The translations under genes and the position numbers were made by a program. Below, piece by piece: positions 2,329-24,826 of a DNA stretch of 64,000 bases (the stretch's first letter is position 1; every line of letters begins with the position of its first letter). Under the pieces are notes generated by a model. The model was given only the letters and a program-made list of their open reading frames with translations. It ran no database searches and had not been told where the DNA came from. The DNA is from Deltaproteobacteria bacterium (lineage in GTDB: Bacteria; Myxococcota; Kuafuiibacteriia; Kuafuiibacteriales; Kuafuiibacteriaceae). Location: positions 416,001 through 480,000 of the forward strand of contig JAVJQW010000012.1 of the NCBI GenBank assembly GCA_040218735.1, written 5' to 3'.

Positions 2329-4212
2329 TCAGCCGAGCGCAGCGAGGGCGCCGAACAACGCCCGCATCGAGGGCCAGCGCGCGTCCGGATCGGGCTCGAG
2401 GCACCGGCGCAGCACGTTGGCGAGCTCCGCGGACACCGGGGTCGTCGTCGGGAGCTCCGGAGGCGGCTCGGAGAACCGCGTGACGAGGTCCGCGACGGTC
2501 CCCTCGAACGCGGGCACGCCCACCAACATCTCGTAGAGCACGGTGCCGATGGCGTAGATGTCGGAGCGTGGATCGACCGCGCCGTCGGCTTGCTCGGGCG
2601 CCATGTAGCGGAGCGTCCCGACGGGCCCCGTGCCCTCGCTGACGTCGCCCTCGAGGCTGGTCGCAATGCCGAAGTCGGCGAGCCGAACGCCACCCTGCCC
2701 GTCGATCAGGATGTTCCCCGGTTTGACGTCGCGGTGAATGATCCCGGCGTCGTGAATCGCCGCGAGCGCAGACGCGACCTCGCGCGCGATCGGCACGGCG
2801 CGGGCCGGACCGAGCGGCCTTCCATTCAAAAGATCCGAGAGCGCGTGCCCGCGGCACAGCTCCATCGCCATGAAGATGACGCCCTGATCCACGCCGAAGT
2901 CGTAGACGGCGAGGCACCCGCGGTGGTGAACACGAGCCGCGAAGCGCGCCTCCTGGATGAAGGCCTCCGAGCGCGCCGCGTCCATCGCCAGCTCCGGCGC
3001 GAGCACCTTCACCGCGACCTCGCGATCGAGCACGACGTCACGACCGAGATACACCGAGGCCTGCGCACCCGAGCCGATCTCCGACCGTATCGCGAAGCGC
3101 TCGCGCAGCGTCGTCCCGACGAGCGTGCGCGTCGCGGTCATCGGCAGCAGAGTCTGCGCGAGTGTTTGGGTCTCGATCGGCACGACCTCGTCGTCGTGGT
3201 CGCCGAGCGCCTCCAGCATGGTCGTCGCCTCGCGATGTTCCGGGAGGATCTCGACGATCGTGTGGAGCGTGCCGCGCGCCTCCGCGACCTGCCCGGACTC
3301 GATCAACAGGCGCGCGTAGAGCTGCAGCGCGGGGAGGTCTGAGCGATCGAATCGGTGTCCGTCGAGCAGGCGCTTGAGCACACGGATCGCGCAGAGCCGA
3401 TCGTCGTCCTCCACCAGAGCACGCGCCATCATCACGCGCGCGCGCCGGTAGATCTTCTGCTCCGGCTCGATCTTCGCGAGCACCTGGATCGCGGAGCCGT
3501 ACGCTGCGCGATCCCCCGACCGTGCGCGGGCCAGGAAGACCTCCGCGGCGTCGAGCGCTTCGTACTCCTCGATCAGCTGGGCCGCCTGCTCCTCGCGGCC
3601 CGCGCGCTGAAGCACCTCGGCCGCGGCCCGCTTCTGATCGCCGATCTCCAAGATTCGGACGGCGCGATCGACCTCACCCTCGCGCTCGAAGCACTGCGCG
3701 GCCGCGCGACAGACACGCTCCGCCTCGACGCCGTCCAGCCCGTACTTCTTCCGGTTCTTGAGCGTCGCGACGTAACACTGCGCCGCGTGCAGGTTGTCGC
3801 CCGCGCGCTCGAACTGCATCGCCGCCTTCAGCTGCTCGTCGCAGCGGAGGTACTCGCGCGCAGCGTGAACGTTCGCGCCGACGCGTGCGTAGAGATCCGC
3901 GGCGGCGCGGTGATCCCCGGCGCGACGGTGGGCCTCGGCGCACTTGCCGAAGGCGCCCGCCCTGAACCAGATCTGCGCCGCGCGCGGCCAGTCCTTCTGA
4001 TCCTCCGCGATCACCGCCGCCTCGGCGTACATGCGCGCCGCGAGCAGGGTGTCCAAAGCGCGATCGATCTCCCCGACGCTCCGGAGGATCCCGGCCGCGT
4101 AGAGCACGTAGTTCTTGTGTTCGGCGTAGGCGCCCTTCTTCTTGGCGCGCTCCGCCGCAGCCAATACGTGCGCGAGCTCTTTGCTCTGCGCTTCGCGGTC
4201 GATCTGCACCAC
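2329..4212 (-). CDS. Cytoplasmic Ser/Thr (Hanks) kinase with N-terminal TPR-like helical repeats
   Basis: C-terminal [33 protein letters not shown]; Ala-rich helical repeats upstream. The 5' part of track ORF 2329..5649 is the shadow of gor; GTG 4212 start is inferred. Confidence 0.85.
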
Positions 4213-4335
4213 CGTCCGGACGTCTCCGGGTTCTTCGATCGGCGGACGCCACCCGGGCCTGAAGCCGAGCGCCGGTGTGTGGCACGAAATGGAACAGGTG
4301 TGCGGGGCTGCACCGCGTGCTACCGGTCTCGGCCC

Positions 4336-10047: not shown

Positions 10048-11676
10048 TCATTCTTTTTCTTCGTCCGAGGGCGGGACGTGGGTGACGCGCGGGAGCTCCA
10101 CCAAGATCTTCGTGCCCTCTTGCTCGGAGGACGTCGCCCAGGCCGTACCGCCGTGGGCGATGGCGACCGCGCGCACGATGTACAGGCCGAGGCCCAGGCT
10201 CTTCGCAGCCTTCTTGCTCGAAGCGCGCTTGCGCGACTCCAGCGGCTCGAAGAGCGTCGGCAGCACCTCCTCGGGGACCGGCTCGCCGGTGTTGTGCACC
10301 GACAGCGTGACACGATCTCCGTCACCGTCCGCGGCGATCGTGACCGTGCTCCCCGGCGGCGAGTACGCGAAGGCGTTGTGCAGCAGGTTCGTCATCACCT
10401 GCGAAAGTCGGTCGGCGTCCCAGCGCCCCGCGAGGTCGCCCGACGTCTCGACGACCAGCTCGTGCTCGTCGAAGAGGCTCTTCGTCTCCTTCGCGATGTG
10501 CCGCACCAGCGTGCCCAAGTCGAGCGCCGTCGGCGTCACCGGGAGGCGACCGCCGAGGCTGCTGCGCGCGAAGTCGAGGAGGTCCTGCACGAGACGCCCC
10601 GCGCGATCGACGGACGAGCGAATGCGATCCGTCGTCTTCAGCTGCTGCGGGTTGAGCTCCCCGAACTCGGGGAGGAGCTGCGCCGCCGTCGTGACGACCT
10701 GCAGCGGGCTGCGCAGGTCGTGGCTCACGATGCCGATCAGCTGCTGCTGGAAGAAGATCTGTTCCTTCGCCCGCTCCGCTTCGCGACGACGCATCGTCAC
10801 GTCCGCGACCACACCGATGCCGGCGCCGTCCGGGTTGTCGTGACGCCCGGCGTAGAGGCGCGCCGAGAGCCAACGGTTCTGCACGGTGCGGAGCTCGATC
10901 GAGGTGTCGCCCATCGTCTCGAGCACGTCCGTGAGCTGGCGGCGAACGTCGTCCCGGTCGCTCGGGAGCACCCGCTGCGTGAGGGCGTCGAGATTTTCGA
11001 TCGTCTCGGCTCCGAACAACTGCAGCGCGAGGTCGTCACACTCGACCGCCCCGTCTTTGCGCCAGACGAACGTACCGAGCCCCGCGAGCTCGACCGCGAG
11101 CGCGAGCTTCTTCTCGCTCTGCGCGAGCGCCTGCTCCGCGTGCACCAACCCCTGAACCGTGTGGAGCAACGCGTCGTTCTGCTCGCGCATGTCCTCGAGC
11201 AGATCACTCGTCTGAAACGCCGGCTCCGTCGCAGACGACGGCAAGGAGGCGTGCGCGGGCGTGGCTAGCGGGGCCTTGTCGACGTACTTCTTCAGCTCGA
11301 CGCGCGTCCCCGACGGCGCGGTCTGCACGGACATCTCGTCGACGAGCGCACGTGTTCCGGCGAGTCCGCGACCGAGCCCGCGCTCCGACGTCGCGTCCCC
11401 GGCGAGCGCTGCGTCGAGATCGTCGATCCCCGGACCGTCGTCTTCGATGCACGCGACGACCGCGGGGCGCCCTTCCGCCGCGTGTTGCAGCTCGAGTCGT
11501 CCGTTCGATGCGTACAGGAGCGCGTTGCGCGCGATCTCCGAGACCGCCGTTGCGAAGCGTGTCTGGTCGAGGAGCTTGAGCCCCGCGTTCCGCGCGTACC
11601 GGCGTGCGAGGCGGCGGGCGGCGACCACGTTGGCCGCGGAGTCGATGATGATCGTCCGGTGATCTTCCTTGCTCAT
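10048..11676 (-). CDS. Sensor histidine kinase with N-terminal RsbT-like HATPase domain (stressosome output)
   Basis: N-terminal TAVSEIARNALLY, DDGPGI, GLGRGL; PAS-like middle; H-box VSHDLRSPL, NLLHNA, LGLGLYI. Confidence 0.9.
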   Translation of the reverse strand: MSKEDHRTIIIDSAANVVAARRLARRYARNAGLKLLDQTRFATAVSEIARNALLYASNGRLELQHAAEGRPAVVACIEDDGPGIDDLDAALAGDATSERGLGRGLAGTRALVDEMSVQTAPSGTRVELKKYVDKAPLATPAHASLPSSATEPAFQTSDLLEDMREQNDALLHTVQGLVHAEQALAQSEKKLALAVELAGLGTFVWRKDGAVECDDLALQLFGAETIENLDALTQRVLPSDRDDVRRQLTDVLETMGDTSIELRTVQNRWLSARLYAGRHDNPDGAGIGVVADVTMRRREAERAKEQIFFQQQLIGIVSHDLRSPLQVVTTAAQLLPEFGELNPQQLKTTDRIRSSVDRAGRLVQDLLDFARSSLGGRLPVTPTALDLGTLVRHIAKETKSLFDEHELVVETSGDLAGRWDADRLSQVMTNLLHNAFAYSPPGSTVTIAADGDGDRVTLSVHNTGEPVPEEVLPTLFEPLESRKRASSKKAAKSLGLGLYIVRAVAIAHGGTAWATSSEQEGTKILVELPRVTHVPPSDEEKE

Positions 11677-12677
11677 CAGCTCATCCCTCTTCGAATCACC
11701 GCGATGGAAGCGTCGTCCGTGCGACGTTCGTGGTCACGGTAGTAGAGCGCAGCGATCGTCGACGCGCGACGCGCGATCAAGCCGGGGAACGAACGCGGCT
11801 CGCGGATCTGGCGCACGCCGTCGGAGTGGAGCACGCAGACGTCGTCCGCTCCGAACGCGATGGTGTCGGTCTTCAGTCTTCGCAACGCGGAGCCGGCCGT
11901 ACCGTGCGTCGCGGCGATTCGGGTGTCGCGCTCCGCACCGAGGACGAAGACGTCGATGTTACCGAGCGTGCAGATTCGAACGTCTTCGCCGGAGAACGTC
12001 GCCACGCCGACCACCGCGCCCCGGGCGCCGCGGAGGGCCTCGTGGAGCGCGCGCACGGTCGACTCCGGCTCGGGATCCTCGACGGCGTCGAACGCCGCGA
12101 TCGCCTGGTCCGCGATCTCCGCCGCGCGGCGCCCGTGACCGAGGCCGTCCACGACACACACCGTGAAACGCTCGGGCGTGATGGTGCGGTACGCGATGGC
12201 GTCCCCCGAATGGGCCTCGCCGGGGTACGCACGGACCAAGCCACCGACGTCGTAGACCGCGTTCGTACGGGGCGTTCGTGCGGAAGCCGCGAGCACCGTG
12301 TCGACGACGGTCCCGCGCTCCGGTGCGGACGCGATGTCCGACTCCGTCGACAGACGCAGCACCGTGCCGAGGCCGTGGCCAGGGGTGTCCGCGGTCGAGT
12401 AGCCGTCGCGCGCGCAGCGCTCGACGTTGTCCATGCCGGGGCCCTGGTCGAAGACCGTGAACCGAACGGTGTCGCCCTCGCGGACGACCAGCGCCTCTCC
12501 GCCTCCTCCGTGCACGACGGCGTTGGTGCACGCTTCGGTGACGACGAGATCCATCTCCCCGATCCGCGCGGCCGTGAAGCCGAGCTGGAGCCCGAGCGCG
12601 CGCGTCGCTGCACGCACCGCAGCGGCCGCGCTCTGATCGCGGACCGGAATCGTTCGACGGAGCCCGACGCGGGTCAT
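11676..12677 (-). CDS. RsbT-like HATPase fused to a SpoIIE/PP2C phosphatase (RsbX-like)
   Basis: TEACTNAVVHGGGG, DQGPG, then SGD, VVDGLGHG, LHSDG, DDAS PP2C motifs; ATGA overlap with rsbT. Confidence 0.88.
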   Translation of the reverse strand: MTRVGLRRTIPVRDQSAAAAVRAATRALGLQLGFTAARIGEMDLVVTEACTNAVVHGGGGEALVVREGDTVRFTVFDQGPGMDNVERCARDGYSTADTPGHGLGTVLRLSTESDIASAPERGTVVDTVLAASARTPRTNAVYDVGGLVRAYPGEAHSGDAIAYRTITPERFTVCVVDGLGHGRRAAEIADQAIAAFDAVEDPEPESTVRALHEALRGARGAVVGVATFSGEDVRICTLGNIDVFVLGAERDTRIAATHGTAGSALRRLKTDTIAFGADDVCVLHSDGVRQIREPRSFPGLIARRASTIAALYYRDHERRTDDASIAVIRRGMS

Positions 12678-13078
12678 GCTCGACCGTACACCGTGGCCGC
12701 GACGTAGAGTCCAGTCGGGGAGCGGGGACGGACCGCGAACTCGTCGGCCAGTCGCCGCGAGCCGCCCAGGCCCAGACCGAGCCCGCCGGCCGTCGAAAAG
12801 CCCTTCTCGAACGCCCTGTCCAGGTCCGCGATGCCCGGACCCTCGTCTTCGAACGTGAGCTCCAGGCCTCGGCGCGCTCCGTCCTGGACCACGCGCCAAC
12901 GGCACACGCCACCGCCCGCGTGCACGAGGACGTTCCGCGCGAGCTCACTCGCGATGGTGAGCGCGCGTGTCTTCTCGAACGTGGACAGACCGATCGAATG
13001 CGCGGCCGCCCCGACCGCGCTCCGCACGCGCGAGAGGTCCGCGCTCGACTCGATCCGAACGCGCGATGGGCTGGCTAT
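12674..13078 (-). CDS. rsbT: Stressosome Ser/Thr kinase RsbT (start codon non-canonical or uncertain)
   Basis: IASELARNVLVHAGGG, FEDEGPGIADL, GFSTAGGLGLGLGGSRRLADEF; lies between rsbS and the phosphatase. Confidence 0.88.
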   Translation of the reverse strand: MASPSRVRIESSADLSRVRSAVGAAAHSIGLSTFEKTRALTIASELARNVLVHAGGGVCRWRVVQDGARRGLELTFEDEGPGIADLDRAFEKGFSTAGGLGLGLGGSRRLADEFAVRPRSPTGLYVAATVYGRA

Positions 13079-13434
13079 GTCGCGCAGAGGGATCGGAGCT
13101 TCTCCATACCGCGATCCACGTTGAGCGCCGTGTGGATCCCGTCCAGCGTCACGCCGAGCTCCACGAGGGTCATCGCGACCTCCGGCTTCACCCCGACCAG
13201 CACGGTCTGCGCGCCGAGGATCCGCGACATCTTCGCGAGGTCCCCGAGGAGACGCCCGGCGAAGGAGTCGACGACGTCGAGCCCGGCGATGTCGATCAGC
13301 ACGCCCTGGCAGCTCGTCTTCTCGATCTGGTGGAGCAAGTCGTCTTGCAAGCGCAGCGCGAGCTCGTCGTGCATATCGATCTGCACGCTCACGAGGAGGA
13401 TGTCGCCCACGCGGAGGATCGGGATGCGGTCCAT
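13075..13434 (-). CDS. rsbS: Stressosome STAS protein RsbS
   Basis: MDRIPIL...LQDDLL...GVLIDIAGLDVVDSF (phospho-Ser)...PEVAMTLVELG. Confidence 0.95.
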   Translation of the reverse strand: MDRIPILRVGDILLVSVQIDMHDELALRLQDDLLHQIEKTSCQGVLIDIAGLDVVDSFAGRLLGDLAKMSRILGAQTVLVGVKPEVAMTLVELGVTLDGIHTALNVDRGMEKLRSLCAT

Positions 13435-13436
13435 CG

Positions 13437-14279
13437 CTACCCCTCCTTGACGACCCGATAGCCCATCCGCTCGATCGCGAACGCGAGCGCGGACCGCAAG
13501 CTGGATTGCGTCTCGATATCGCCGAGGTCAACGCCGAGCGTGACCATCGTCTGCGCGATCTGCGGACGTACGCCGGAGATCACACATCGCGTGCCCATCA
13601 AGCGCGCCGCCGACACCGTCTTCACGAGGTGCTGCGCGGTCACGGAGTCGACGGCCGGCACGCCAGTGATGTCGAGGATCGCGACCTCGGACTCACGCTT
13701 CACGATCTCTTCGAGCAAGGTCTCCATCACCTGCTGCGTGCGGGATGAGTCGAGGACGCCGATGATCGGGAGGACGAGGATTCGATCCCACACCTCGACG
13801 ACCGGCGTGGACAGCTCGAGCACTTCCTCCCGCTGGCGAGAGATGATCTCGTCGCGCTCCTCCAGGCTCACCGCTGCGACGTGCAGCCCGAGCTGGTCGA
13901 AGATCGACGTGGTGAGTCGTAGCTCCTCGGCGAGCGCCGCGCGGGACCCCAGCTCGGTCACCATGAGCGAGAACAACGCCTGCTTGAACGAAAGGACGAA
14001 CATCGCGGTGTCGACGGGCGACACGCCGAGCCGAGACCACGCCCGCGCGATGTCGGCGGTGACGGCTCTCAAGTCGTCCCATTCGTCGCCGTCGTACTCG
14101 GCGATCCCTTTGGCCATCGCGCGGTGCGCGCCGTCGATGAAGACGACGGAGCGCTCGCGGCGCTCCCGCGGCCCGACGAGGTCGGTGCGTACGGCGTCAT
14201 CCTTCACCTGGAACGACAGCCACTTTTCGAGGAGCACGTCCTCGCGGTCTCGTATGAGTTTTCCGATCGTCGTGGGCAC
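13437..14279 (-). CDS. rsbR: Stressosome co-antagonist RsbR (RsbRD_N-like + STAS)
   Basis: ELSTPVVEVWDRILVLPIIGVLDS, ILDITGVPAVDS, ISGVRPQIAQT. Confidence 0.95.
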   Translation of the reverse strand: MPTTIGKLIRDREDVLLEKWLSFQVKDDAVRTDLVGPRERRERSVVFIDGAHRAMAKGIAEYDGDEWDDLRAVTADIARAWSRLGVSPVDTAMFVLSFKQALFSLMVTELGSRAALAEELRLTTSIFDQLGLHVAAVSLEERDEIISRQREEVLELSTPVVEVWDRILVLPIIGVLDSSRTQQVMETLLEEIVKRESEVAILDITGVPAVDSVTAQHLVKTVSAARLMGTRCVISGVRPQIAQTMVTLGVDLGDIETQSSLRSALAFAIERMGYRVVKEG

Positions 14280-14365: not shown

Positions 14366-14881
14366 TCAGAACTTGAACGTTGCACCGACGCGGCCTTCGA
14401 TCGGGATGGCCGTCGAAGGGGTCACGTACGGGCTGAAGTTGAGCTCGCCGTGGAGGAGGATCACGTCGGCGACCTCGATCTCCAGGCCACCGCCGACCGT
14501 GACGCCCAGGACGAGGTCGGCGTCGCCGCCCGGGAAGAGGATGGGCGCAGAGAGTTTTCCGTAGAGCCAGTCGAAGGGGAACACCTTCGCCTGCGGGCGG
14601 AACCCGAGGAACGTGCTCTGCGCGCGCGGGTAGACGTCCGGCTCGTCGATACCGAACACCAGCGGAATCTCCAACCGGAGCATCCCGATGTCCCAGCCCG
14701 GCCCGACGTCGAACGTGACCGGACCCCGGTCCGATGCGATGTCGTCGCTCGCGGCGAGCATGAACGAGGTGCCCGCCGAGGCCTGCACCGTGATGTCCGC
14801 GCGCGCCTCGTTGGCGACGCCGAGCGCGGCGAGGGCGCCGAGCGCGATGAGAGGGATGCGGATTCGGGTTCGGTGCGTCAT
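14366..14881 (-). CDS. Small outer-membrane beta-barrel-like protein
   Basis: Signal peptide ending ARA, amphipathic strands, C-terminal GATFKF. Confidence 0.7.
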   Translation of the reverse strand: MTHRTRIRIPLIALGALAALGVANEARADITVQASAGTSFMLAASDDIASDRGPVTFDVGPGWDIGMLRLEIPLVFGIDEPDVYPRAQSTFLGFRPQAKVFPFDWLYGKLSAPILFPGGDADLVLGVTVGGGLEIEVADVILLHGELNFSPYVTPSTAIPIEGRVGATFKF

Positions 14882-15019
14882 GAAAGTCTGTCTCCTCACT
14901 CTTCCTCAGTTGGTAGACGCGGGCCACTTTATGAGGCTGCGCCGTGCGATCGCGAACATGCGCCGGCGATCACGCTTGACCGGACCGAGCGCGAGGTCTA
15001 GGCAGCTAGCAACTTCCAT

Positions 15020-15175
15020 ACTCTTCGTGCGGCAGCAGGGAAGCCGGTGAAATTCCGGCGCGGTCCCGCCACTGTCAGCGATTCGGCCACGTTCGGGGCG
15101 TAAGCGCCCAGCCACTCGGTCACACCGGGGAAGGCGAACGCGGCAACAGGTCGCGAGCCAGGATATCTGCTCCGT
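15020..15175 (+). ncRNA. Cobalamin (AdoCbl) riboswitch
   Basis: All conserved boxes in order: AGGGAA (15037), CCGGTGAAATTCCGG, GCGGTCCCGCCACTGT, GCCACT (15111), GGGAAGG (15128), B12 box GAGCCAGGATATCTGC (15155-15170). Confidence 0.93.
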
Positions 15176-15298
15176 GCGTTTTTCCATCCGGTGGTCCCGC
15201 GAGGTTTCGGGCGAGGGTGAAACGGCGAGACGCCGCTTCTTCTCTTCGAACCTCACGAGCTCATCGGCGCCGGCGGATCAACCGGCGAAGGAGCGAAC

Positions 15299-16378
15299 GT
15301 GAATCGTCTTCGAATCAGCCTCCCCCTCGTGATCGCGCTGGCCGCCGCCTGCGGTGGCACCGAGAACCCCCTACCGCCCAATCCGTCCGGATCCCTGGAG
15401 GTCGCCGGAGCCTACGGCTCCGCCTTCGGCGAGGAGACCATCTCCGCGACGATGTGGGGCGCGACGACGATCGTGGAGTTCGACAACGACGCGAACTTCG
15501 CGATCACGCAGAACGCGGCGGACGACATGTTCAACCCGTCGGCGTTCAACCGCATCGTGTGGACGGAGCCCGACGCCAAGGGCGGGTTCTACTACTGCTT
15601 CGAGGTCTTCGGGCAGGCGACCGCCGAAGAGGCGAAGGCCGCGACCGAGATGGCGGACGCGGCCGACCCGGCGACGGGCGGGTGCGGCGGCTTCCCGTGG
15701 ACGCAGCTGTATCACGCGATCGAGATCGAGGGGCGCTACCACAGCAACTTCGGCGGCGTGGAGATCGTCTCGCACGAGCAGTTCTCGTTCATGACGGTGG
15801 TGGAGTTCGACAACGACGCGAACTTCGCCATCACGCAGAGCCCGGCCGACGACATGTTCAACCCGAACAAGTTCAGCAAGATCGTCTGGACGGAGCCGGC
15901 CAACGGCGGGTTCTTCTACTGTCAGGTCACGTTCGGCGAGGACACCGCCGAGGCCGCCAAGAACACGACCGAGATGGCGGACGACAGCAACCCGACCGTC
16001 GACGGGTGCAGCGGGTTCCCGTGGACGGAGCTCGGCCCGACGTTGGAGATCGAGGGCGAGTACGACAGCAACTTCGGCGGGACCGAGACGATCACCTCCG
16101 ACCTTTGGACCTCGTACGACGCGAGCGTCGTGCGCGAGTACGACAACGACGCGAACATCGCCTACCTGCAGCTCCCCGAGGACGCGATGTTCAACCCCGA
16201 CACCTTCGCGAAGGTGGTGTGGACGGAGCCGGACGGCGGCGCGTTCTACTACTGCTGGGTCGACTTCGGGTACGCGACGCTCGACGAAGCCAAGACGAGC
16301 ACGCAGACCTGGGACGCGAGTGATCCGGACAACTCTGGCTGCGGGGGCTTTTCGTGGACCAAGCTCACCGCGCGCTGA
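15299..16378 (+). CDS. Lipoprotein made of three tandem ~110-aa disulfide-containing repeats; riboswitch-controlled
   Basis: AAGGAG RBS, lipobox AAAC; three copies of (L/I)ExxGxYxSxFG...E(F/Y)DNDAN...MFNP...VWTEP...(F/Y)YC...GCxGFxWT. Confidence 0.88.
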   Translation: MNRLRISLPLVIALAAACGGTENPLPPNPSGSLEVAGAYGSAFGEETISATMWGATTIVEFDNDANFAITQNAADDMFNPSAFNRIVWTEPDAKGGFYYCFEVFGQATAEEAKAATEMADAADPATGGCGGFPWTQLYHAIEIEGRYHSNFGGVEIVSHEQFSFMTVVEFDNDANFAITQSPADDMFNPNKFSKIVWTEPANGGFFYCQVTFGEDTAEAAKNTTEMADDSNPTVDGCSGFPWTELGPTLEIEGEYDSNFGGTETITSDLWTSYDASVVREYDNDANIAYLQLPEDAMFNPDTFAKVVWTEPDGGAFYYCWVDFGYATLDEAKTSTQTWDASDPDNSGCGGFSWTKLTAR

Positions 16379-17049
16379 TCCTGTTGCTGCTCTGCAGCTG
16401 CGCGGGTGAAGACCCGACGCAGCTGCTCCTCGACGGCGGCCCGCGCGACGCGGGCTCGGTGCGGGACGCGGGCGTCGACACGTCGGCGCTGCCGTTTGCA
16501 CGCTCCGTGACGGCGTTCGACGACGGCGACGGCGCGGGCTTCGGCCAGGACGCGATGCCCGGCGTGGTGCTCGGACCTCCGCGCGGCGGCGGGCTCGAGG
16601 CCGGCTCGACCGACGTGGTGAGCCTCGGCGTGGGCGGAACGATCGTCGTCGGGTTCGGCGACGACACGATCGTGGACGGGCCAGGGCCCGACTTCGTGGT
16701 GTTCGAGAACGCCTTCTGGGTCCAGGGCGACCCGAGCGACGTGTTCTTCGAGCTGGGCGAGGTCTCCGTGAGCGACGACGGCGAGACCTGGCACACGTAC
16801 CCGTGTGACGCCGAGGCGACGGCGCCCCCCTGGACGGGGTGCGCCGGTTGGTCCCCCACGCGCCCGTTCGACCCGTTCGACCTCCCCCTCACCGCCGACC
16901 GAACGGGGGGCGACGCGTTCGACCTGGCCGATCTCGGGCTCGACGAGGCCCGGTTCGTGCGGATCCGCGACCTGTCCACCGAGGGGGTCCCACCGACGGC
17001 AGGGTTCGACCTCGACGCGATCGGGTTGTTGCACGTCGACGGCCTGTAG
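16354..17049 (+). CDS. Cell-surface lipoprotein (SLG..GG.IVVGF / DFVVFENAF family)
   Basis: Lipobox LCSC; motifs SLGVGGTIVVGFGD, GPGPDFVVFENAF, GEVSVSDDG, GGDAFDLADLG, RFVRIRD, GFDLDAI; overlaps the upstream gene. Confidence 0.8.
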   Translation: MDQAHRALILLLLCSCAGEDPTQLLLDGGPRDAGSVRDAGVDTSALPFARSVTAFDDGDGAGFGQDAMPGVVLGPPRGGGLEAGSTDVVSLGVGGTIVVGFGDDTIVDGPGPDFVVFENAFWVQGDPSDVFFELGEVSVSDDGETWHTYPCDAEATAPPWTGCAGWSPTRPFDPFDLPLTADRTGGDAFDLADLGLDEARFVRIRDLSTEGVPPTAGFDLDAIGLLHVDGL

Positions 17050-17146
17050 AACCTGCCACTTCTGCAAGTCGGTGCAAGCGTTCGGGGCCGGCGGGGCGCC
17101 TGCGGAGGTCTTCTCGTCTGGCCCGGATGGTGCTTAGAACGAGGGG

Positions 17147-20100
17147 ATGCCGCGCGTCGACCGACGGCGTTTCGAGGCGAGCTTCGCCCACCGACAGGTC
17201 CGTGTGGACCGTCTTCCGCGGAACCTCGTCCGCAGCCTCGAGGCGCATGGCGTCAGCCGCGCCGATCTGGAGCGCATCGCCGGTGACGACCACGTCATCC
17301 AGGGCGCCGAGTTCAACCAGCTCTACGAAGCGTTGGCGACCCGGACGCAAGGCGGCCAGCGCGTCGACACCCGGGTCAGCGAGGAACTGTTCGCCCAGCT
17401 GACCGCGCGCGCCGAGCGCAGCCCGTCGAGCACGCCGGAGCCGACGCCCACCGCGACGGCGCGGAGCACGGGGATCGGAGGGCGTCGTTCGGCGCGGCCG
17501 GGCTCGGCCGCGGACGAAACCCCGCCCGGTGCGAACGGTGTCGGGGCGAACGGTGCGGCGGCGAACGGTGTCGGTACGAACGGAACGCCGGCGGTCGCGC
17601 AGCCCGCCGACCCGGGTGCGCCCGCGGCCGCGCAGCCCGAGACCGCGGCGCCCGAGGGTCCGCCGCCCCTCGCCGAGGGTTACAACCGGCGCGAGCGGCG
17701 CATCGGCCGCGAGGACGTCGTCACCCACGCGGTGCTCGACCCCGAGACGCAGCGGACGGCGGCGGCGCTCGCGGCGCTCCCGCCCGCGACCGAGGGGCGC
17801 CACACGCCGGTGCGTGCGTTCCTCGACGCGATCGAAGCGCGCGACGAGCGAGCGCGCCTCCTCGCGGAGGGTGACCGTCGCGGCGCCGGCGCCGTGACGC
17901 GCCCCGAGGGTGTGCCGGCCGACATCTGGAACGTCACGGCGGCGCTCGATCGACGCGGGATCAGCTCGACCGACGTCCAGTTCTACCTCGCGCACGGCAC
18001 ACTCCCGGATCTGCTGAACGAGGACGGCTCCGTCGCGATGCGCGGCGCGGACCGCCTCGCGGAGCTGGAGAACGCGGCGATCCGGCGCGGCAGCTGGACG
18101 GCGGTGAACACGTTCACGTTCCTGGTGCGGATGCGCCGGTCGTCGATGGCGGCGGAGCGCGAAGCGGCCGGGCGCGTGCTCGCGACGATCCCGGAGTCGG
18201 ATCCGAGGCACGCGCAGATCACCGCGGGGATCGAGCAGAGCCGACAGCTCGACACGCAGCTCGGGCGCAGCCTCCAGTCGATGTACCGCGCCGCCACCGG
18301 CGCCCGCGAGTCGACCGGGCGCGGGCTGATCGGTCGCGCCGACGATCTCAGCCGACAGGCGCGCGAAGCGCGAAGCGGCGGCGACGAGGCGCGCGCAGTG
18401 GAGCTCGAGCAACGCGCCCAGGGCCTTCGCGATCGCGGCGCGCAGATCACGCACGCGGAGGCGGAGTACCGCTCGTCGATGCGTTCGTACCGCGCCGACG
18501 CCGGACGTCTCTATCGCCTCTCCGCCGCCGCGCAGATCTCGACCGGCGAAGAGCAGGTCCGCGCGCTCGCGACGCAGACCGGCCCGCTCCCCGAAGCGCC
18601 GCCGGCCGTGCTCGGCAACGACGACGGCACGAACACCGGCAACGGCGTGCCCGGCGCCGAGCGCCTCCTCACCACCGCGCGCGCCGTCGACCCGACGGCG
18701 GGCACCGACGACACGCAGCTCGCGCTGGAAGGACGCCGCGCCGCGGCCGTCGGTGGCTTCCACCGCGCACACCTGGACCGCGGTGGTTACTTCGATCGCG
18801 TCGACCCCGAGACCGGCGAGGTCTCGACGCGTTCGTCGGGGCTCGCGCGGCACCGCGACCTCTACCTCGGCGCGCGCGTCGATCAGGCGAACGCGGCGAC
18901 CGGGCGCCTCGCGCTCGCGCGCGCGGAAGAACCAAGCACCGACCGCGACCTGCGCATCTCCTCTCTGGAGGCGGAGCGTCGCGGCGTCGCGGAGGAGCTG
19001 TCGCGTGATCTCGGGCAGTCCCTCGCGAGTGATCGCGCGGCGACCGACGCCCGTGCGCGCGTCCGTGATCTCGACGCGGCGGTCACGAGCGCCGACGAAC
19101 AGCGCGACGGCGCACGCACCGCGGCGCGCGACGCGGACAGCGGCGTCGACAACGCCGAGAGCAACGCCTACGCGCTCCTCGGCGACACACTCAAGACCGA
19201 CGGCGAGGCGCGCCGCGACCGCGAAGGTGTGTCGGACGCCCGCACCGTTCGCAGCATCGAGCGCGGGCGCCGCGACCTCGCGGTGGTCAACGCGCGCGAG
19301 ACGCGCGAGACCCGCGACCGCGCGGTCGACGCCGAACGTGTCGCGACCACGCAGGCCCAGCGCGACCGCGAAGACGCCGCGCGTGTGCTGCGCGCCGCGC
19401 AGCGCCTCGAGACCGGCGAGATCTCCGCGACGGTCCCGACGACGACCGAAGAAGGCTACCGCTTCGCGCGTGGGATGGCGGACCGAAGCGCGCGCGCCGA
19501 GACGAGCGCCCTGGACCGCGCGGCGCTGTCGATCCCCGAGAGCGCGCCCGCCGATCACCGCGACCGCCTCACGGTCGCGAGCCGCCGCGTGGACCTGTCG
19601 CGCTATTGGACGCGCAGCGCGGAGGGCGAAGCCGTCGCGCTCGGCGACGCCGGCCGGAGCGGTGCGACGGGACGCCTCGATCGTGCATCGCGGTTGATCA
19701 GTCAGTCCGACGCCACACGCCTCACCCTCGACGGCGGCTCGGACGCCCGGCTCGGCCTCGCGTCGGGGTTGGTCACCGCGCGCGCCGAGCTCGCGACGGC
19801 CGAGGGCGACTACCGACCCGACGTCGCGCGGCAGCAGCTCCTCGTCGCCGAGACGACCGTAGACGGCGACCTCGCCCTCGACCGCGATCGCGCCGGACGG
19901 GCCTACGGCGAGATCGGCGTCGCGGCGACCGCGGCGCTCGCGCGCAGCGAGTCTCGGTTCGACGCGATCCTCGACAGCGGCAACCACGTCCCCGGCGCAG
20001 CGGACGCGCTCTACCTCCAGGCGCATCGCATGTTCGACCCGGTGCCGTTCGTCGTCATGCCCCGCGGCATCCCGGACACGCCGGCGACACGCTCGGCGCG

Positions 20101-23100
20101 TGAGACCCTCGGGCGCTTCGACGCCGCGCTCGACCAGGTCGACGGGATGTTCACGGCGAGCCAGGCGCAGATCCGCAACGGCGCCGACTACGCGCTCGCG
20201 CGGACCCGCGGCCTCGGCCACAGCGAGATCGGCGCGGCGCAGGCGCAGGTCTCGACGGTGATCAGCGGCGGCGCGTGGGTCCTCTCCCTCGGCTTCTTCG
20301 ACATGAAGGAGGAGATGGCCGACGCGGGCGAGCACATGATTCGCCACCGCATGAGCTGGGTGCGCCAGGAGCGCGACAGGCTGGTTCGCGGCGCGGACCA
20401 CATGCGGGCGTCGTACGCCGCGGCGCGCACGGACGGGCGCGCGTTCGAGTGGCTGCACTCGGTGCGTATCATCTCCGACCGCAGCCGCGCGGACACGATG
20501 CCGCAGACCTACGGGCGCGCGTTCGTCACGATCGCCGAGCACATCCCGGACGACATGCGCTCGCGGATGGACTGGCAGACGTTCAACCGCATCGCGATCC
20601 GCGAAGGACACGTGCCGGTCGCCGCCGCGCTCTCCGGCAGCGTCCTCGGCTTCGAGCAGGCGATGGAGAACCTCTCCGACGATCGCATCATGGCCGTCAC
20701 CCCGGGCATGGCCGACGCGATCCAGTCGCAGGCCGACAGCCTCGAAGAGACCACCGACGGGATGATGTGGATCATCGGCATCAACACCGCGCTCGAGGTC
20801 GGCCTCGGGATCGTGTTGACCGGTGGCATCGGCTCGGTCGGCGCCGCGGCCGAGGGCGCGAACGCGCTCAACACCACGCGCACCGCGGCCTCCGCGATGA
20901 GCGCCGCGCGCAACGCACAGCTCGCGCTCCGCGCGATGGCGGCGCTACGCACGATGGGCACCGTCACCGTCGTCGGCGGCGGGATGATGGCGGCGAACTA
21001 CGGCGTCGGGAAGCTCGTCGGCCGCAACACCGGCGCCGCGCGCGGGTTCGAGGTGCTCACCAACTTCATCCCGATCGGCGCCGGGCAGCGCGCGGCGGGC
21101 ATCGTCGGTCACGCGGACGACGTCGCCGCGGCGGGGACCCGCCTGCAGCAGCTCCGTCGCGCGATGAGCTGGTCCCACGTGCGCAGCGCTTCGGCGTGGA
21201 GCCGCGCGCTGACGCCGGTCGCGCTCGGTAGCGCGCAGGCGTTCGGGACGACGGTCGCGACGCCGTGGATCGCGCAGCGGGTCGGCCTGGAGCGGAGTGA
21301 CCTCGGGCAGGCGGCGATCGGCCTCGGCCTCAACGTCATCTTCGCGGGTGGCATGGCGGCGGCCGTGCGTCCGCGCACCACCGCGACGGGTCTCGCGGAT
21401 CACCTCTCGGCCGCGATGGGCGAGCACGCGCCGTCGCGCCGCGCGCGCGGGCAGATGCGCACGGAGATCGAGACCTTCCTGCGCAACACGGAAGGTCGCG
21501 TGCCCACCGACGCCGAGGTCTCCGCGCTGAAGACACGTCTGCAAGAGCACATGGGCCTCGACGCCGCGACGCCCGACGCACCGGAGCGCGTCGCGATCGT
21601 CGACGGCGCGGTGGAGGCGCTCCGCATCGAGCGCGCCACGCAGCTGCACGCGGGTGCGTTCGACGATGGCACGACCCCGGCGCAGGCGCGTGACGCCGTC
21701 ATCGCCGCGGGTGACGCGCTCTACCAGGCGCGCGGCGGCGACGCGGGCGGCACGTCGCGACTCCAGGCGTACCGCGACGCCGCGATGACGATGAGCGAGC
21801 GCCTCGGCGGACAGGCCCGCGCGGCGTTCGAAGCCGGCGACACCGCGCGCGGCACCGCGCTGATGGAGCTGCGCCAGGTCGTCGGTGAGCGCGCGCTCGC
21901 GGCCGAGCTCGTGGAGGGTACGGCACGCGGCAACCCGAACGACGCGACGCTCTCCAATCCGACGAACCGCGCCAACGCCGAACGCATCCTCGCCGAGGAG
22001 CTCACCGCGGCGCGCACCGCGCTCGACGGCACCGAAGGCCCGGGCCTCGGCCAACGCGACGGCAGCTCGTTCTACGACGGGCTCGTCCGCCGCCTCCGCG
22101 AAGAGGGTGGCCTCTCCTCCGAAGCCGCGGAGACGGTGGTGCGCGGCGCACGCGACGAGCTCGTGCACCAGGCTGTCCTGCGGCACCTCGCCGCGGCGCA
22201 GGTGGAGGCGGGGCCGCGACCGCTGCGCAACAACGAGATCTCGCGCATCGCGACCGAGCTCGCGCAGCGCGCCGGCCTCCCGGACGCGCCGGCGTACGCG
22301 CGGTCGATCGTCGAGCAGCGGCCCGCGCTCGAGCGCTCCGGCTTCGTACGTCCGTCTTCGCGTCCGACGCTCGACGCCGCGATGATCGAGCAGCGCGCGC
22401 GCGCCGCGGCCGACGCGGACCCGTCGATCGCGCGGTTCATCGAACAGCACGGCCCGATCGCGGAGCGCCTCGTCGGTGAGCTCGGCGCCGAGCGGTTCAT
22501 GCAGGCGTTCGGCGACGGCGACATGGTGTCGTTCGAAGCGCGACGCCTGATCGAGCTGCCGCCGGAGCGCATCAACGAGCTGATCGACGTCGCCCAGGAC
22601 GACCCGGCGCGTGTGCAGGGCATCATGCAGGCGCTCGGCGTCGGTGAGTCGCGCTCGGTCGTGCTGCGTGCGTTGAACGAAGTCGGCGTGGAGCCGGCGG
22701 CGCGCCTCGCGGAGATCGGCGCTCAGTCCCCGCGCGGCCTCGGCTACCTCGCCGCGCGCGAGGGTGGCGCGACCCGCGTCCTGCAACGCCTCGCGACCGA
22801 GCCGAACGCCCTCGCCGCGCAGGCCCGGCGGATGGAGGCGCGCATCTTCATGCGCGCGAACGACGGCACCTACCTGGTGCGCGGCGATCCGCCCGCGCCG
22901 ATCCCGGCGCCGACGCGCCGACAGCTCGAAGGCCTCGCGCGACGTGCCGGCGTCGACCCGGCGGTGCTCCGCGATCCGACCGCGCACCCCGCCGAGATGG
23001 CGCGCGTGATGGATCAGATGCGCAGCGAGATGCCGGCCGACATGCGCGCCGCGCTCGACCGCGAGCTGGCCGGGCGACGTTTCATCGACGAGGTCCACTA

Positions 23101-24826
23101 CCAGGAGGCGTTCGACGCGGGCGTCAACAACCCGGAGCACCGCTACGGGCGCGTCGACTTCGAAGCGTGGCAGCGCGCCGAGTCGATCATGATGGGCGCC
23201 GCCGACCGCGGCGAGCCGCTCACCGCCGACACGTTGATCGCCGCGCACCGCGCCGCGAGCGAAGGCATCCTCCCCGAGCCGCGCCGCGGCCTGATCCGCT
23301 CCGCCCCCGCCGAGACCGCGTTCCAGGGTGGCGACGGCCCGATGGGCCAGCGCGTCGTCACGCAGGCGGAGTTCGAGACGATGCGCGCGAACCCGCACCT
23401 CAACGTGCACGACCTCGGCGCCTCCGACGGCGGCCGTCTCGTCATCGTCGAGTACACCTCCCCCGCCGAGGTTCGCGCCAAGCTCGACGTCGCGCTCCGA
23501 CGCATCGACGAACGCCTCGCCGCCGGCGAGGACCCCGTCACGGTCGCCGCCGACGCGCAGCGCGAGTTCGTCAGCATCCACCCGTTCCTCGACGGCAACG
23601 GCCGCATGAGCCGACTCGTGATGGACTACGTGCTCCGTCGCGAAGGCCTCTCGCCATCCGTCGTGCGCGACCCGAACCTCGACACGCAGGTGTCGTCGGC
23701 CGCGTGGCGCGCCGAGGTCCGGCGCGGGATGCAGCGCCCATTCGAGGCGACGATGAACGCGTGGAACCGTGCGCAGCGCGGTCGTCCGCCACCCATCCGC
23801 GCGAACGCGGATCCGGTCGGGCCGTCGCCGGTCGGCGACTCGGCCCACGCACGCCGCGACACCCTCGGATGGACCGGTCAGCCCACAGCGACGCCGCCCG
23901 CGGGCGCCGAGCACCTCGGTGTCATCCACCGCGGCATGCAGGCGATGTCGCCGCGGTCGCGTCGGCTGATCGAGTCGTACCTGCAGCGCGCGGAGAGCGG
24001 TCCGCCCGAGCTCGTCGCACGGCGCGACGCACTCGCGACTCGGCAGCAACAGATCTGGCAGGAGCACGGTCGTCTCCTCGGCACGCCGGCCGATCAACTG
24101 CCCGCGCCGGATCGTGCGCGGCAAGAGGCGTTGCAAACGGAGCTCGCGACGATCAGCTCGGAGCGAACCACCGTCGACCGTGCGATCGGTGACGCGCAGC
24201 TCGCGGCGCGCCGGATGGCGATCGCGGAGATGCAGCGGGTTCGCGACGGGATGCGTCGACACGTCTCCGACGCCGAGTCGCGTCGCATCGCGGACGGGAT
24301 GCCGATTCACCCGTCGGCGGCCGCAGCCGCCGAACCGGCCCGCCTCCGTGCCTGGGTCGCGGACGCGCTGCAACTCATCCCGCACGAGATCGGCGCGGAG
24401 TCGATCTCACTGGTGAGTGATCGCCCACGCGCCGACGCGCGCCGCAGCGGCACGCTCAACATCGGCGAAGACATCACGCGAGGCATCACGTTCCACGAGA
24501 TCGGGCACTACATCGAGTTCACCAACCCCGAAGTCGCCGCCGCCGCGCGCGCGTGGGTGATGGAGCGAAGCCGGATGGCCAACGGCGGCACGGCGCAGCG
24601 GGGAGAGATGCGGGACCTCGCGGGCTCCGACTTCTACGACCGCGGTGAGATGGCGTTCGAGGATCACTTCGACAACCCATACATCGGGCGTGACTACGGC
24701 GAAGGTGGATCGACGGAGGTCGTGAGCGTCGGGATGGAGTACTTGACGTCGCCGGAGCGAATGCTCCAGCTCTACCAACGCGATCCGGAGCACTTCTTCT
24801 TCATGATGGGAGTCTTGGAACCATGA
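17147..24826 (+). CDS. 2559-aa polymorphic-toxin-like protein: helical body, hydrophobic segment, Fic domain, C-terminal HEXXH metallopeptidase
   Basis: Canonical Fic motif HPFLDGNGRMSR at 23579-23614; HEIGH at 24494-24508 with downstream STEVVSVGME; Gly/Ala-rich hydrophobic helices at about 20760-21370; no Sec signal. Confidence 0.85.
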   Translation: MPRVDRRRFEASFAHRQVRVDRLPRNLVRSLEAHGVSRADLERIAGDDHVIQGAEFNQLYEALATRTQGGQRVDTRVSEELFAQLTARAERSPSSTPEPTPTATARSTGIGGRRSARPGSAADETPPGANGVGANGAAANGVGTNGTPAVAQPADPGAPAAAQPETAAPEGPPPLAEGYNRRERRIGREDVVTHAVLDPETQRTAAALAALPPATEGRHTPVRAFLDAIEARDERARLLAEGDRRGAGAVTRPEGVPADIWNVTAALDRRGISSTDVQFYLAHGTLPDLLNEDGSVAMRGADRLAELENAAIRRGSWTAVNTFTFLVRMRRSSMAAEREAAGRVLATIPESDPRHAQITAGIEQSRQLDTQLGRSLQSMYRAATGARESTGRGLIGRADDLSRQAREARSGGDEARAVELEQRAQGLRDRGAQITHAEAEYRSSMRSYRADAGRLYRLSAAAQISTGEEQVRALATQTGPLPEAPPAVLGNDDGTNTGNGVPGAERLLTTARAVDPTAGTDDTQLALEGRRAAAVGGFHRAHLDRGGYFDRVDPETGEVSTRSSGLARHRDLYLGARVDQANAATGRLALARAEEPSTDRDLRISSLEAERRGVAEELSRDLGQSLASDRAATDARARVRDLDAAVTSADEQRDGARTAARDADSGVDNAESNAYALLGDTLKTDGEARRDREGVSDARTVRSIERGRRDLAVVNARETRETRDRAVDAERVATTQAQRDREDAARVLRAAQRLETGEISATVPTTTEEGYRFARGMADRSARAETSALDRAALSIPESAPADHRDRLTVASRRVDLSRYWTRSAEGEAVALGDAGRSGATGRLDRASRLISQSDATRLTLDGGSDARLGLASGLVTARAELATAEGDYRPDVARQQLLVAETTVDGDLALDRDRAGRAYGEIGVAATAALARSESRFDAILDSGNHVPGAADALYLQAHRMFDPVPFVVMPRGIPDTPATRSARETLGRFDAALDQVDGMFTASQAQIRNGADYALARTRGLGHSEIGAAQAQVSTVISGGAWVLSLGFFDMKEEMADAGEHMIRHRMSWVRQERDRLVRGADHMRASYAAARTDGRAFEWLHSVRIISDRSRADTMPQTYGRAFVTIAEHIPDDMRSRMDWQTFNRIAIREGHVPVAAALSGSVLGFEQAMENLSDDRIMAVTPGMADAIQSQADSLEETTDGMMWIIGINTALEVGLGIVLTGGIGSVGAAAEGANALNTTRTAASAMSAARNAQLALRAMAALRTMGTVTVVGGGMMAANYGVGKLVGRNTGAARGFEVLTNFIPIGAGQRAAGIVGHADDVAAAGTRLQQLRRAMSWSHVRSASAWSRALTPVALGSAQAFGTTVATPWIAQRVGLERSDLGQAAIGLGLNVIFAGGMAAAVRPRTTATGLADHLSAAMGEHAPSRRARGQMRTEIETFLRNTEGRVPTDAEVSALKTRLQEHMGLDAATPDAPERVAIVDGAVEALRIERATQLHAGAFDDGTTPAQARDAVIAAGDALYQARGGDAGGTSRLQAYRDAAMTMSERLGGQARAAFEAGDTARGTALMELRQVVGERALAAELVEGTARGNPNDATLSNPTNRANAERILAEELTAARTALDGTEGPGLGQRDGSSFYDGLVRRLREEGGLSSEAAETVVRGARDELVHQAVLRHLAAAQVEAGPRPLRNNEISRIATELAQRAGLPDAPAYARSIVEQRPALERSGFVRPSSRPTLDAAMIEQRARAAADADPSIARFIEQHGPIAERLVGELGAERFMQAFGDGDMVSFEARRLIELPPERINELIDVAQDDPARVQGIMQALGVGESRSVVLRALNEVGVEPAARLAEIGAQSPRGLGYLAAREGGATRVLQRLATEPNALAAQARRMEARIFMRANDGTYLVRGDPPAPIPAPTRRQLEGLARRAGVDPAVLRDPTAHPAEMARVMDQMRSEMPADMRAALDRELAGRRFIDEVHYQEAFDAGVNNPEHRYGRVDFEAWQRAESIMMGAADRGEPLTADTLIAAHRAASEGILPEPRRGLIRSAPAETAFQGGDGPMGQRVVTQAEFETMRANPHLNVHDLGASDGGRLVIVEYTSPAEVRAKLDVALRRIDERLAAGEDPVTVAADAQREFVSIHPFLDGNGRMSRLVMDYVLRREGLSPSVVRDPNLDTQVSSAAWRAEVRRGMQRPFEATMNAWNRAQRGRPPPIRANADPVGPSPVGDSAHARRDTLGWTGQPTATPPAGAEHLGVIHRGMQAMSPRSRRLIESYLQRAESGPPELVARRDALATRQQQIWQEHGRLLGTPADQLPAPDRARQEALQTELATISSERTTVDRAIGDAQLAARRMAIAEMQRVRDGMRRHVSDAESRRIADGMPIHPSAAAAAEPARLRAWVADALQLIPHEIGAESISLVSDRPRADARRSGTLNIGEDITRGITFHEIGHYIEFTNPEVAAAARAWVMERSRMANGGTAQRGEMRDLAGSDFYDRGEMAFEDHFDNPYIGRDYGEGGSTEVVSVGMEYLTSPERMLQLYQRDPEHFFFMMGVLEP

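Follow-up and report, generated by a model that had tools for sequence, protein, structure and literature searches.

In a 64,000-nt stretch of a Myxococcota genome (Deltaproteobacteria bacterium, assembly GCA_040218735.1, contig JAVJQW010000012.1, positions 416,001 to 480,000 of the forward strand; hereafter the window), a cobalamin riboswitch stands in front of two overlapping genes for predicted lipoproteins, one made of three tandem repeats (P0001; REP) and the other made of a single BtuH-like domain (P0002; P2). We propose that this region is a B12-repressed operon of two genes producing a corrinoid-capture pair for the cell surface, in which REP works together with the BtuH-type P2, and we give this reading a probability of about 0.6. 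The parts of the reading differ in strength. It is highly probable that the operon serves surface corrinoid capture under repression by B12, and the chance that REP itself binds corrinoid is put slightly under even. Points in favor of binding by REP are that its gene lies directly behind the riboswitch, its motifs are strongly conserved across two phyla and its predicted fold is that of a ligand binder. Published work is cited below by PMC number.

Riboswitch, leader and the two lipoprotein genes

The riboswitch covers positions 1-189 of the 189 positions of the RF00174 model in cmscan, with both ends present, and RF00174 is the sole Rfam family in the window. The initial annotation, made from the letters of this DNA without database searches, had placed an intact cobalamin riboswitch directly before a lipoprotein gene, in agreement with the full-model match ending 110 nt ahead of the start codon of P0001. 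The element is also matched, as a positive control, by the variant covariance model R1 described below (60.6 bits). In the whole host genome of 11.6 Mb, no second RF00174 match was detected among the 150 of 639 first-look candidates that were scored. By its homology, the element is predicted to bind cobalamin and to switch. Pattern scanning of the leader placed a terminator-like hairpin at 15223-15235, with CTTCTTCTCT behind it, a weak candidate, the two terminator-like sites found against 1.1 expected from shuffles being not significant. The predicted fold of 15150-15310 gave a z value of -0.49.

Public metagenomes from several studies (sponge, aquaculture, biofloc and biofilm) contain DNA nearly identical to 14950-17100, indicating that the organism or its close kin occurs in marine or aquaculture settings. 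A 151-nt contig of one metatranscriptome run is identical to 15020-15170, and the same run includes fragments matching the start of REP and P2 with a divergence of about 7-10%. These contigs are weak evidence, too thin for a claim of expression, since such an RNA library can contain DNA.

The P0001 gene starts with GTG, and AAGGAG is located at 15288-15293. The protein begins with MNRLRISLPLVIALAAAC, the lipobox Cys being residue 18. This Cys is invariant in 15 three-repeat homologues, and a lipobox-like motif was found in 178 of 226 REP homologues starting with M. By a signal peptide ending in the lipobox Cys, both P0001 and P0002 are classified as bacterial lipoproteins, with lipidation and surface exposure as predictions. 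The three repeats of about 110 aa described in the initial annotation, together with the named motifs and one Cys pair each, are all present in the internal alignment: the repeats are 108-111 aa in length with pairwise identities of 59, 52 and 50%, DNDAN is located at 62, 171 and 282, MFNP at 77, 186 and 297, and VWTEP at 87, 196 and 307, and an F/YYC strand and GCxGFxWT are present in every repeat. Each repeat contains exactly two Cys (100/129, 208/237 and 319/348), which in the structural model are positioned like a disulfide, in strand 6 and in the loop preceding the last strand.

P0001 matched no Pfam family at E<=1, including none to PF16819 or PF14717, and the earlier statement that BtuB, BtuF and BtuG features are absent is thus right for the repeat protein. 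The repeat had been considered unrecognized, but the NCBIfam model NF047669 ('LIC13354 family exoprotein') matches P0001 in three stretches, one per repeat (94.7 bits, E 7.7e-27), the best stretch and the genome-level matches spanning only model positions of about 79-162 of 174. This score stays under the curated cut-off of 130, and P0001 is, on sequence, a domain-level homologue of NF047669 and not a member by the curated rule. REP homologues numbered 188 in a word-indexed search, mostly proteins of Myxococcota metagenome-assembled genomes (MAGs), and an exhaustive search at E<=0.001 gave 941 cluster representatives. Among 242 homologues, the repeat number was one in 32, two in 124, three in 56, four in 29 and five in 1.

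The AlphaFold2 model of P0001, constructed from a 30-sequence alignment, has a predicted local distance difference test score (pLDDT) of 89.7 and a predicted template modeling score (pTM) of 0.75. Each modeled repeat consists of eight strands and one short helix and is predicted to form an eight-stranded lipocalin-like barrel, with Treponema pallidum Tp0751 as the best fold match. Profile A1 gave only a chance antibody match against PDB sequences, and in the ESM Atlas repeat 2 detected Myxococcota and Gemmatimonadota clusters without names, along with Staphostatin B at 0.76.

The unit was at first thought to end at 16378. It extends further, into a second conserved lipoprotein gene, that for P0002, which overlaps the P0001 gene. 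Behind its signal peptide, the protein has a single domain, joined by a linker of about 30 aa; its lipobox is LLLCSC with the Cys at residue 16 (LLCSC16), and this Cys is invariant or nearly so in the homologues. N-terminal PKD/Ig domains are absent, with no PKD match in Pfam. The only Pfam match of P0002 was F5/8 type C at E 0.19, a family also detected in 4 of the 31 members of the P2 alignment A3 (best E 0.023). The NCBIfam model NF033170 ('LIC_13355 family lipoprotein') aligned its positions 79-219 of 273 with residues 77-198 at 38.7 bits (E 6.5e-10), a score under the curated cut-off of 120 bits.

The AlphaFold2 model of P0002, from the 31-sequence alignment, has a pLDDT of 86.8. Its best Foldseek match was 8blw_B (E 2e-5), with 7biz_B in fourth place (E 1.4e-3), followed by generic discoidin/CBM32 sandwiches, and the predicted fold agrees with the C-terminal globular domain of BtuH2 and the H-domain of BtuG1. 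8BLW chain B is BtuG1 of Bacteroides thetaiotaomicron, whose C-terminal extension of about 250 residues is homologous to BtuH2 and forms a second B12 site (PMC10404256). 7BIZ is BtuH2 with cyanocobalamin bound in the C-terminal domain, where Gln333, Asn399, Phe401, His476, Tyr510, Trp511, Trp577 and Leu578 contact B12 and calcium sites are also present (PMC8941943).

Domain fusions point in the same direction. In a search of long P2-bearing proteins, the P2 domain was found fused with a Plug domain and a TonB-dependent-receptor barrel (P0332), with DUF4465, the B12-binding domain of BtuJ (P0359 and P0360), and with PF16819 propellers bearing tails of the type IX secretion system (T9SS). One of the last group, P0300, carries a propeller similar to that of BtuG1 (E 3.8e-11), and its arrangement, a G domain and then an H domain as in BtuG1, provides an indirect sequence link between P2 and BtuH. 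From the structure matches and the domain fusions, P2 is taken as a BtuH-type domain that may contact B12. Another set of proteins, P0246-P0299, is about 600-720 aa in length, mostly 630-650, with a C-terminal BtuH-like domain after about 440 residues without a precomputed Pfam family; these may be fusions of the BtuG-H type with a propeller invisible to Pfam.

Table 1. Positions of the riboswitch, the lipoprotein genes and other features discussed (window coordinates; those of the receptor-like ORF refer to the related loci L020, L026 and L030). ORF, open reading frame.
Feature	Position	Strand	Basis or remark
Cobalamin riboswitch aptamer, RF00174	15010..15188	+	cmscan, 75.8 bits against gathering 31.5, E 7.1e-17
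Leader / candidate expression platform	15189..15298	+	sequence, pattern scan
Gene of P0001, 359-aa triple-repeat predicted lipoprotein (LIC13354-like, REP)	15299..16378	+	ORF, translation, NF047669 match, AlphaFold2 model
Predicted signal peptide of P0001 with lipobox (LAAAC, Cys18)	15299..15352	+	sequence
P0001 repeat 1 (aa 32-140)	15392..15718	+	internal alignment; model strands 37-138
P0001 repeat 2 (aa 141-248)	15719..16042	+	internal alignment; model strands 145-247
P0001 repeat 3 (aa 249-359)	16043..16375	+	
Gene of P0002, 231-aa BtuH-like predicted lipoprotein (LIC13355-like, P2)	16354..17049	+	ORF, own lipobox; 25-nt overlap with P0001 gene
Secreted-type ORF, 177 aa, signal peptide, no Pfam family	14366-14899	-	transcribed away from riboswitch
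RsbR-like (RsbRD_N + STAS)	13437-14279	-	stressosome-like cluster 10048-14279
STAS protein	13075-13434	-	stressosome-like cluster
Small HATPase kinase	~12674-13072	-	RsbR/RsbS/RsbT-type stressosome-like cluster
HATPase + SpoIIE phosphatase fusion	11676-12905	-	stressosome-like cluster
Histidine kinase with extra N-terminal HATPase_c_2	10048-11676	-	stressosome-like cluster
2559-aa ORF, Fic/DOC domain at residues 2025-2163 (E 5.5e-11)	17147-24826	+	starts 98 nt after the pair
TonB-dependent-receptor-like ORF	L020 6376-8274; L026 6355-6971 (contig end); L030 6358-8259		weak NCBIfam match

Conservation of the riboswitch-linked pair

A total of 80 REP-encoding loci, mostly from Myxococcota, were taken from a one-genome-per-species collection, and all were scanned with the Rfam gathering thresholds. 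A B12 riboswitch at gathering score was detected in 65 loci (12/17, 16/18, 13/16, 15/19 and 9/10 by batch). All 65 elements are on the same strand as the gene, 70-691 nt (median 299) ahead of the first domain, which is REP in 63 loci and P2 in two. In six of the 15 riboswitch-negative loci, the contig extends for fewer than 200 nt upstream. One Myxococcota subgroup includes many positives with scores of just 33-42 bits; from 16 low-scoring elements of this subgroup the covariance model R1 was constructed and run on the 15 negatives. R1 added seven loci with the element at the expected place (L003, L007, L018, L022 and L024 with 65-80 bits, L065 with 46.6 and L043 with 26.6), bringing the total to 72 of 80, and gave no match in L006, L071 and the six loci with short upstream contig. 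Since background density in this group is only about 1-5 B12 riboswitches per genome of 4-12 Mb, chance is excluded as the source of the REP linkage. The initial proposal had tied the repeat family to riboswitch control, and its homologues are indeed riboswitch-linked, in the spirochaetes as well (see below).

A P2 homologue detected by jackhmmer adjoins REP in 53 of the 80 loci, mostly immediately downstream of REP or overlapping with it, and upstream in L013, L039, L040 and L048. The two are fused in one frame in L037, L056 and L057, and P2 is located at the C-terminus of 4 of 242 REP homologues; in the fusions (L037, L056 and L057; P0140 and P0193) the repeats are N-terminal to P2. Where P2 is away from REP, it is encoded elsewhere in 4 of 5 such genomes, and R1 matches just ahead of three of these four copies. 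L061 has a separate P2 gene behind a second riboswitch, the two elements at 388-512 (-) and 3246-3411 (+) facing apart.

Some loci deviate from the simple order. The arrangement is P2, riboswitch and REP in L013 and L040 (two contigs of one MAG), and REP, riboswitch, REP and P2 in L067 and L072. With the riboswitch located between genes in these four loci, not every copy of the module can be under the same switch. Two riboswitches facing apart are also present in L033, at 3916-4077 (-) and 4130-4322 (+), the latter before a 273-aa ORF without family match. In the Lujinxingia-like loci L063, L067, L069 and L072, the module is located just behind four to six consecutive tRNA genes and the gene for signal recognition particle (SRP) RNA.

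The initial annotation had also stated that no transporter belongs to the unit. This holds within the window, and clustering of the neighbors in the 80 loci gave no transporter conserved in cis. In 3 of the 80 loci (L020, L026 and L030), however, a TonB-dependent-receptor-like ORF of about 633 aa directly follows P2 with overlapping stop and start, its best weak NCBIfam match being the BtuB model (E 4e-6 and 3e-4). The ORF that comes next, of 345-368 aa, is without assignment.

The pair is also present in spirochaetes. A total of 301 genomes were searched with NF047669, all from the phylum to which one of the hits belongs, a MAG titled 'Spirochaetes bacterium', and 30 loci were taken; the label Leptospira used here comes from the names of the family models. 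NF047669 was detected in 35 of the 301 genomes, in 21 of them over the cut-off, and the repeat hidden Markov model (HMM) still matches the spirochaete genes. Of the 30 loci, 28 show a REP gene of one repeat with P2 as the next gene, and a riboswitch of the adenosylcobalamin (AdoCbl) or Cobalamin type is located upstream in 29 of 30, about 230 nt ahead of the NF047669 match. The ten best-scoring loci gave no riboswitch at the gathering threshold, and 11 of the other 20 carry gathering-score elements on the strand of the gene (RF01482 in seven, RF00174 in four). Sub-threshold RF01482 matches were found in 18 of the 19 remaining loci, with 39-48.3 bits against the cut-off of 50 (E 8.8e-6 to 1.3e-3), at the same relative position as the gathering-score elements. 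The 29 spirochaete elements align on the conserved B12 core, and three predicted pairs show compensatory double changes, one of them being U-A in 15 sequences and C-G in 13.

In L. interrogans, LIC13354 (4112445-4113182, +) and LIC13355 (4113249-4114076, +) are adjacent, and their expression increased 3.77- and 3.72-fold, respectively, in host-implanted chambers (PMC3953431). Counting by Rfam trusted cut-offs gave two cobalamin riboswitches in infectious Leptospira species and none in L. biflexa (PMC3493377, PMC3953431). Because these counts were made at the trusted cut-offs and the elements ahead of the pair mostly score just under the Rfam threshold, a third B12 riboswitch seems to have been missed. 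LIC1nc80, a host-induced RNA of L. interrogans, was considered as the leader of LIC13354 and rejected, its coordinates of 4,015,037-4,015,237 being 97 kb away. The literature searched, with most subscription journals outside the search, holds no description of the REP-P2 module or of LIC13354/LIC13355 as B12-related.

The genome of the window's host, 96.5% complete, gave no match to CobN, CbiC or CobS, while PF02310, the B12-binding domain, was matched eight times over the cut-off. With B12-binding-domain proteins present and the three markers of corrin synthesis not found, the host appears to use B12 and to depend on the import of corrinoid. Several TonB-dependent receptors are encoded, the best of which spans the BtuB model nearly end to end with 204 bits, under the equivalog cut-off. 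Within a sample of 301 genomes of the host phylum, REP was detected in 43, concentrated in a few families: 12 of 18 genomes in the family of the host and 5 of 5 in two further families, with none among the 123 genomes of the largest family. CbiC was found in 17 of the 301 genomes, with no overlap with REP (0/43 REP-positive genomes against 17/258). Many REP carriers are labelled Bradymonadales, Lujinxingia or Microvenator, which are predatory groups.

Proposed function and alternative explanations

The context of B12 scavenging suggested in the initial annotation is supported by the BtuH-like partner, by fusion of the partner domain to uptake proteins and by the failure of CbiC, CobN and CobS to match in the host. 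The recognizable B12-binding fold belongs to P0002, which that annotation did not cover, and the corrinoid-binding family that it proposed for the repeat stays a candidate. At low intracellular cobalamin, the riboswitch would permit synthesis of both lipoproteins. The single BtuH-type domain of P0002 would bind corrinoid as the C-terminal domain of BtuH2 does, and the three tandem barrels of P0001 would most likely act as a multivalent corrinoid binder or as a hand-off partner in contact with P0002, raising the capture capacity. The next recipient of the corrinoid would be a TonB-dependent transporter of the outer membrane, with its gene at another place in the genome. Capture of corrinoid from prey is speculation. 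A wider proposal is tentative, and its odds are set a little lower than those of corrinoid binding by REP: the repeat would represent a new, lipocalin-like class of corrinoid-binding domain, used in tandem (one to five copies) as a multivalent B12 trap feeding the BtuH-type partner, and the riboswitch-controlled module of both proteins would be the main capture device of many predatory Myxococcota and of Leptospira, the 'adhesin' of the latter actually taking part in vitamin uptake.

Several observations weigh against the proposed capture pair. The likeness of P0002 to BtuH is one of predicted structure only; the P2 profile A3 reached 8blw_B (BtuG1, residues 384-498) in PDB at E 0.78 only, the broader P2 profile A5 gave no match in PDB, and NF033170 gave no match in B. 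thetaiotaomicron. For REP, Foldseek with the three-domain P0001 model gave no match at E<=0.001, and with about 110 aa the barrel is small relative to a 1.3-kDa corrinoid. Pattern scan and fold prediction did not pin down the switching mechanism or expression platform of the leader. No transporter is linked in the window, and a homologue of the receptor-like ORF of L030 was not found in the host genome. Among 425 neighboring ORFs clustered from the 80 loci, neighbors other than P2 do not recur, the best cluster being present in 6 loci. That REP and CbiC do not overlap agrees with the capture pair and proves nothing: against an expectation of 2.4 shared genomes the result is not significant, and the genomes are related to one another. 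Finally, LIC_13355 of Leptospira is reported to be an adhesin for laminin and plasminogen (PMC11891782).

One alternative retains the operon for B12 acquisition and makes REP an accessory that does not bind corrinoid: a stalk or scaffold keeping the BtuH-like domain clear of the membrane, an adaptor for docking to a receptor, or a vesicle or release factor like BtuL of Bacteroides. Variation of the repeat number from one to five is typical of spacer modules, the fusions place the repeats N-terminal to P2 at the position where BtuH2 has PKD domains (PMC8941943), and the riboswitch loci of Bacteroides include lipoproteins such as BtuK2 and BtuL that do not bind cobamide (PMC13616437). REP is, however, usually a separate lipoprotein with its own lipobox rather than a tether, and the conservation of DNDAN, MFNP, VWTEP and GCGGFxWT exceeds the need of a spacer. 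In 63 of 65 loci, moreover, it is REP that comes first after the riboswitch, and in L013 and L040 the riboswitch lies between P2 and REP. An accessory role without binding is the chief rival to the capture pair and is considered unlikely.

It is far less probable that the two proteins are adhesins or factors for interaction with host or prey, B12 control then just signaling surroundings that are poor in nutrients or inside a host. Tp0751, to which the repeat has its best fold match, is a vascular adhesin. In addition, recombinant LIC_13355 bound laminin, plasminogen and endothelial cells in vitro (PMC11891782), and both Leptospira genes are induced in the host as described above (PMC3953431). 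The module is, however, widespread in free-living Myxococcota of marine, sediment and aquaculture origin that have no animal host, riboswitch control is retained across the two phyla, and P2 is fused with TonB-dependent receptors, DUF4465 and BtuG-like propellers. The text of PMC11891782 does not mention B12, cobalamin or BtuH, and the B12 alternative is thus not addressed there, while up-regulation in the host also fits B12 limitation in that environment (PMC3493377).

The least probable explanation is scavenging of cobalt, or of some other metal, instead of corrinoid. Cobalt transporters are also among the targets of cobalamin riboswitches, and the repeats contain many conserved Asp, Asn and Glu residues and two Cys each, so that acidic residues and Cys pairs might form metal sites. 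One Leptospira riboswitch precedes cbtAB (PMC3493377). The cobalt role raised as an option in the initial annotation is nevertheless very unlikely, since CbiC, CobN and CobS were all without a match in the host genome, which thus shows no evident use of cobalt for corrin synthesis, CbiC was not found in any of the 43 genomes with REP in the phylum sample, the nearest structures of P0002 are B12-binding domains, and the Cys pair is placed in the model as a disulfide would be.

Neighboring genes and comparison with known systems

The genes around the pair (Table 1) include a stressosome-like cluster and a secreted-type ORF upstream and a large ORF with a Fic/DOC domain downstream. The translation of the latter contains an HPFxDGNGR motif and a C-terminal HEIGH-like motif, the remainder being without Pfam match. 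The 177-aa ORF, the Rsb cluster and the Fic ORF do not recur beside relatives of the pair.

Capture of B12 by surface lipoproteins has so far been a story of Bacteroidota (BtuG, BtuH, BtuJ and BtuK), and a compact, different module, consisting of one riboswitch, a repeat protein without assigned function and a minimal BtuH-like domain, is now found in two other phyla. If the structural assignment of P2 is correct, the range of the BtuH domain extends well past that given in the 2026 review. As small soluble proteins, the pair offers testable candidates for a possible new B12-binding fold, and the proposed capture pair offers a testable account of vitamin supply in predatory bacteria auxotrophic for B12. 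In addition, a protein published as a host adhesin of Leptospira may belong to vitamin uptake, because homologues of LIC13354/LIC13355 are located behind a B12 riboswitch in nearly all of the spirochaete loci.

Compared with BtuH, as represented by BtuH2 of B. thetaiotaomicron (7BIZ) and the H-domain of BtuG1 (8BLW), P0002 has only 231 aa and is without the PKD/Ig domains. Its sequence similarity to BtuH is not significant (E 0.78), it is found outside Bacteroidota, and it is not located beside BtuB or BtuG. BtuH binds B12 at the Bacteroides surface and is encoded in riboswitch-controlled loci (PMC8941943, PMC10404256, PMC13616437), its homologues being listed predominantly in Bacteroidota, plus three Firmicutes species, in the 2026 review (PMC13616437).

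With LIC13354/LIC13355 of Leptospira, the pair in the window shares both order and strand, the P0001 gene standing directly before the LIC_13355-type gene P0002 as LIC13354 does before LIC13355, and the spirochaete carriers also have an upstream B12 riboswitch. In contrast to P0001 with its three repeats, the NF047669 proteins of spirochaetes carry a single repeat, preceded by an N-terminal part that is specific to the family and unmatched in P0001 (model positions 1-78). LIC_13355 is in print as an adhesin, with no link to B12 in the literature searched. By predicted fold, the repeat comes closest to bacterial lipocalin-like lipoproteins, for example Tp0751 (5JK2), BACOVA_00364 (4GZV) and BT_0869 (3HTY), and to avidins.

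For REP, the beta-propellers BtuG and BtuK and the DUF4465 protein BtuJ (an augmented jellyroll) of Bacteroidota may be considered as functional analogues only. These are lipid-anchored accessories of corrinoid uptake under riboswitch control, acting as a relay (PMC13616437, PMC10404256). In contrast to these propellers and jellyroll, REP is predicted to be a lipocalin-like barrel. Within the cobalamin riboswitches RF00174 and RF01482 (clan CL00101), the element in the window is a full-length RF00174, and those of its relatives are RF00174 or the shorter AdoCbl type. Among the targets of these riboswitches, P0001 and P0002 stand outside the classes listed as known in the initial annotation, namely uptake, synthesis and isoenzymes.

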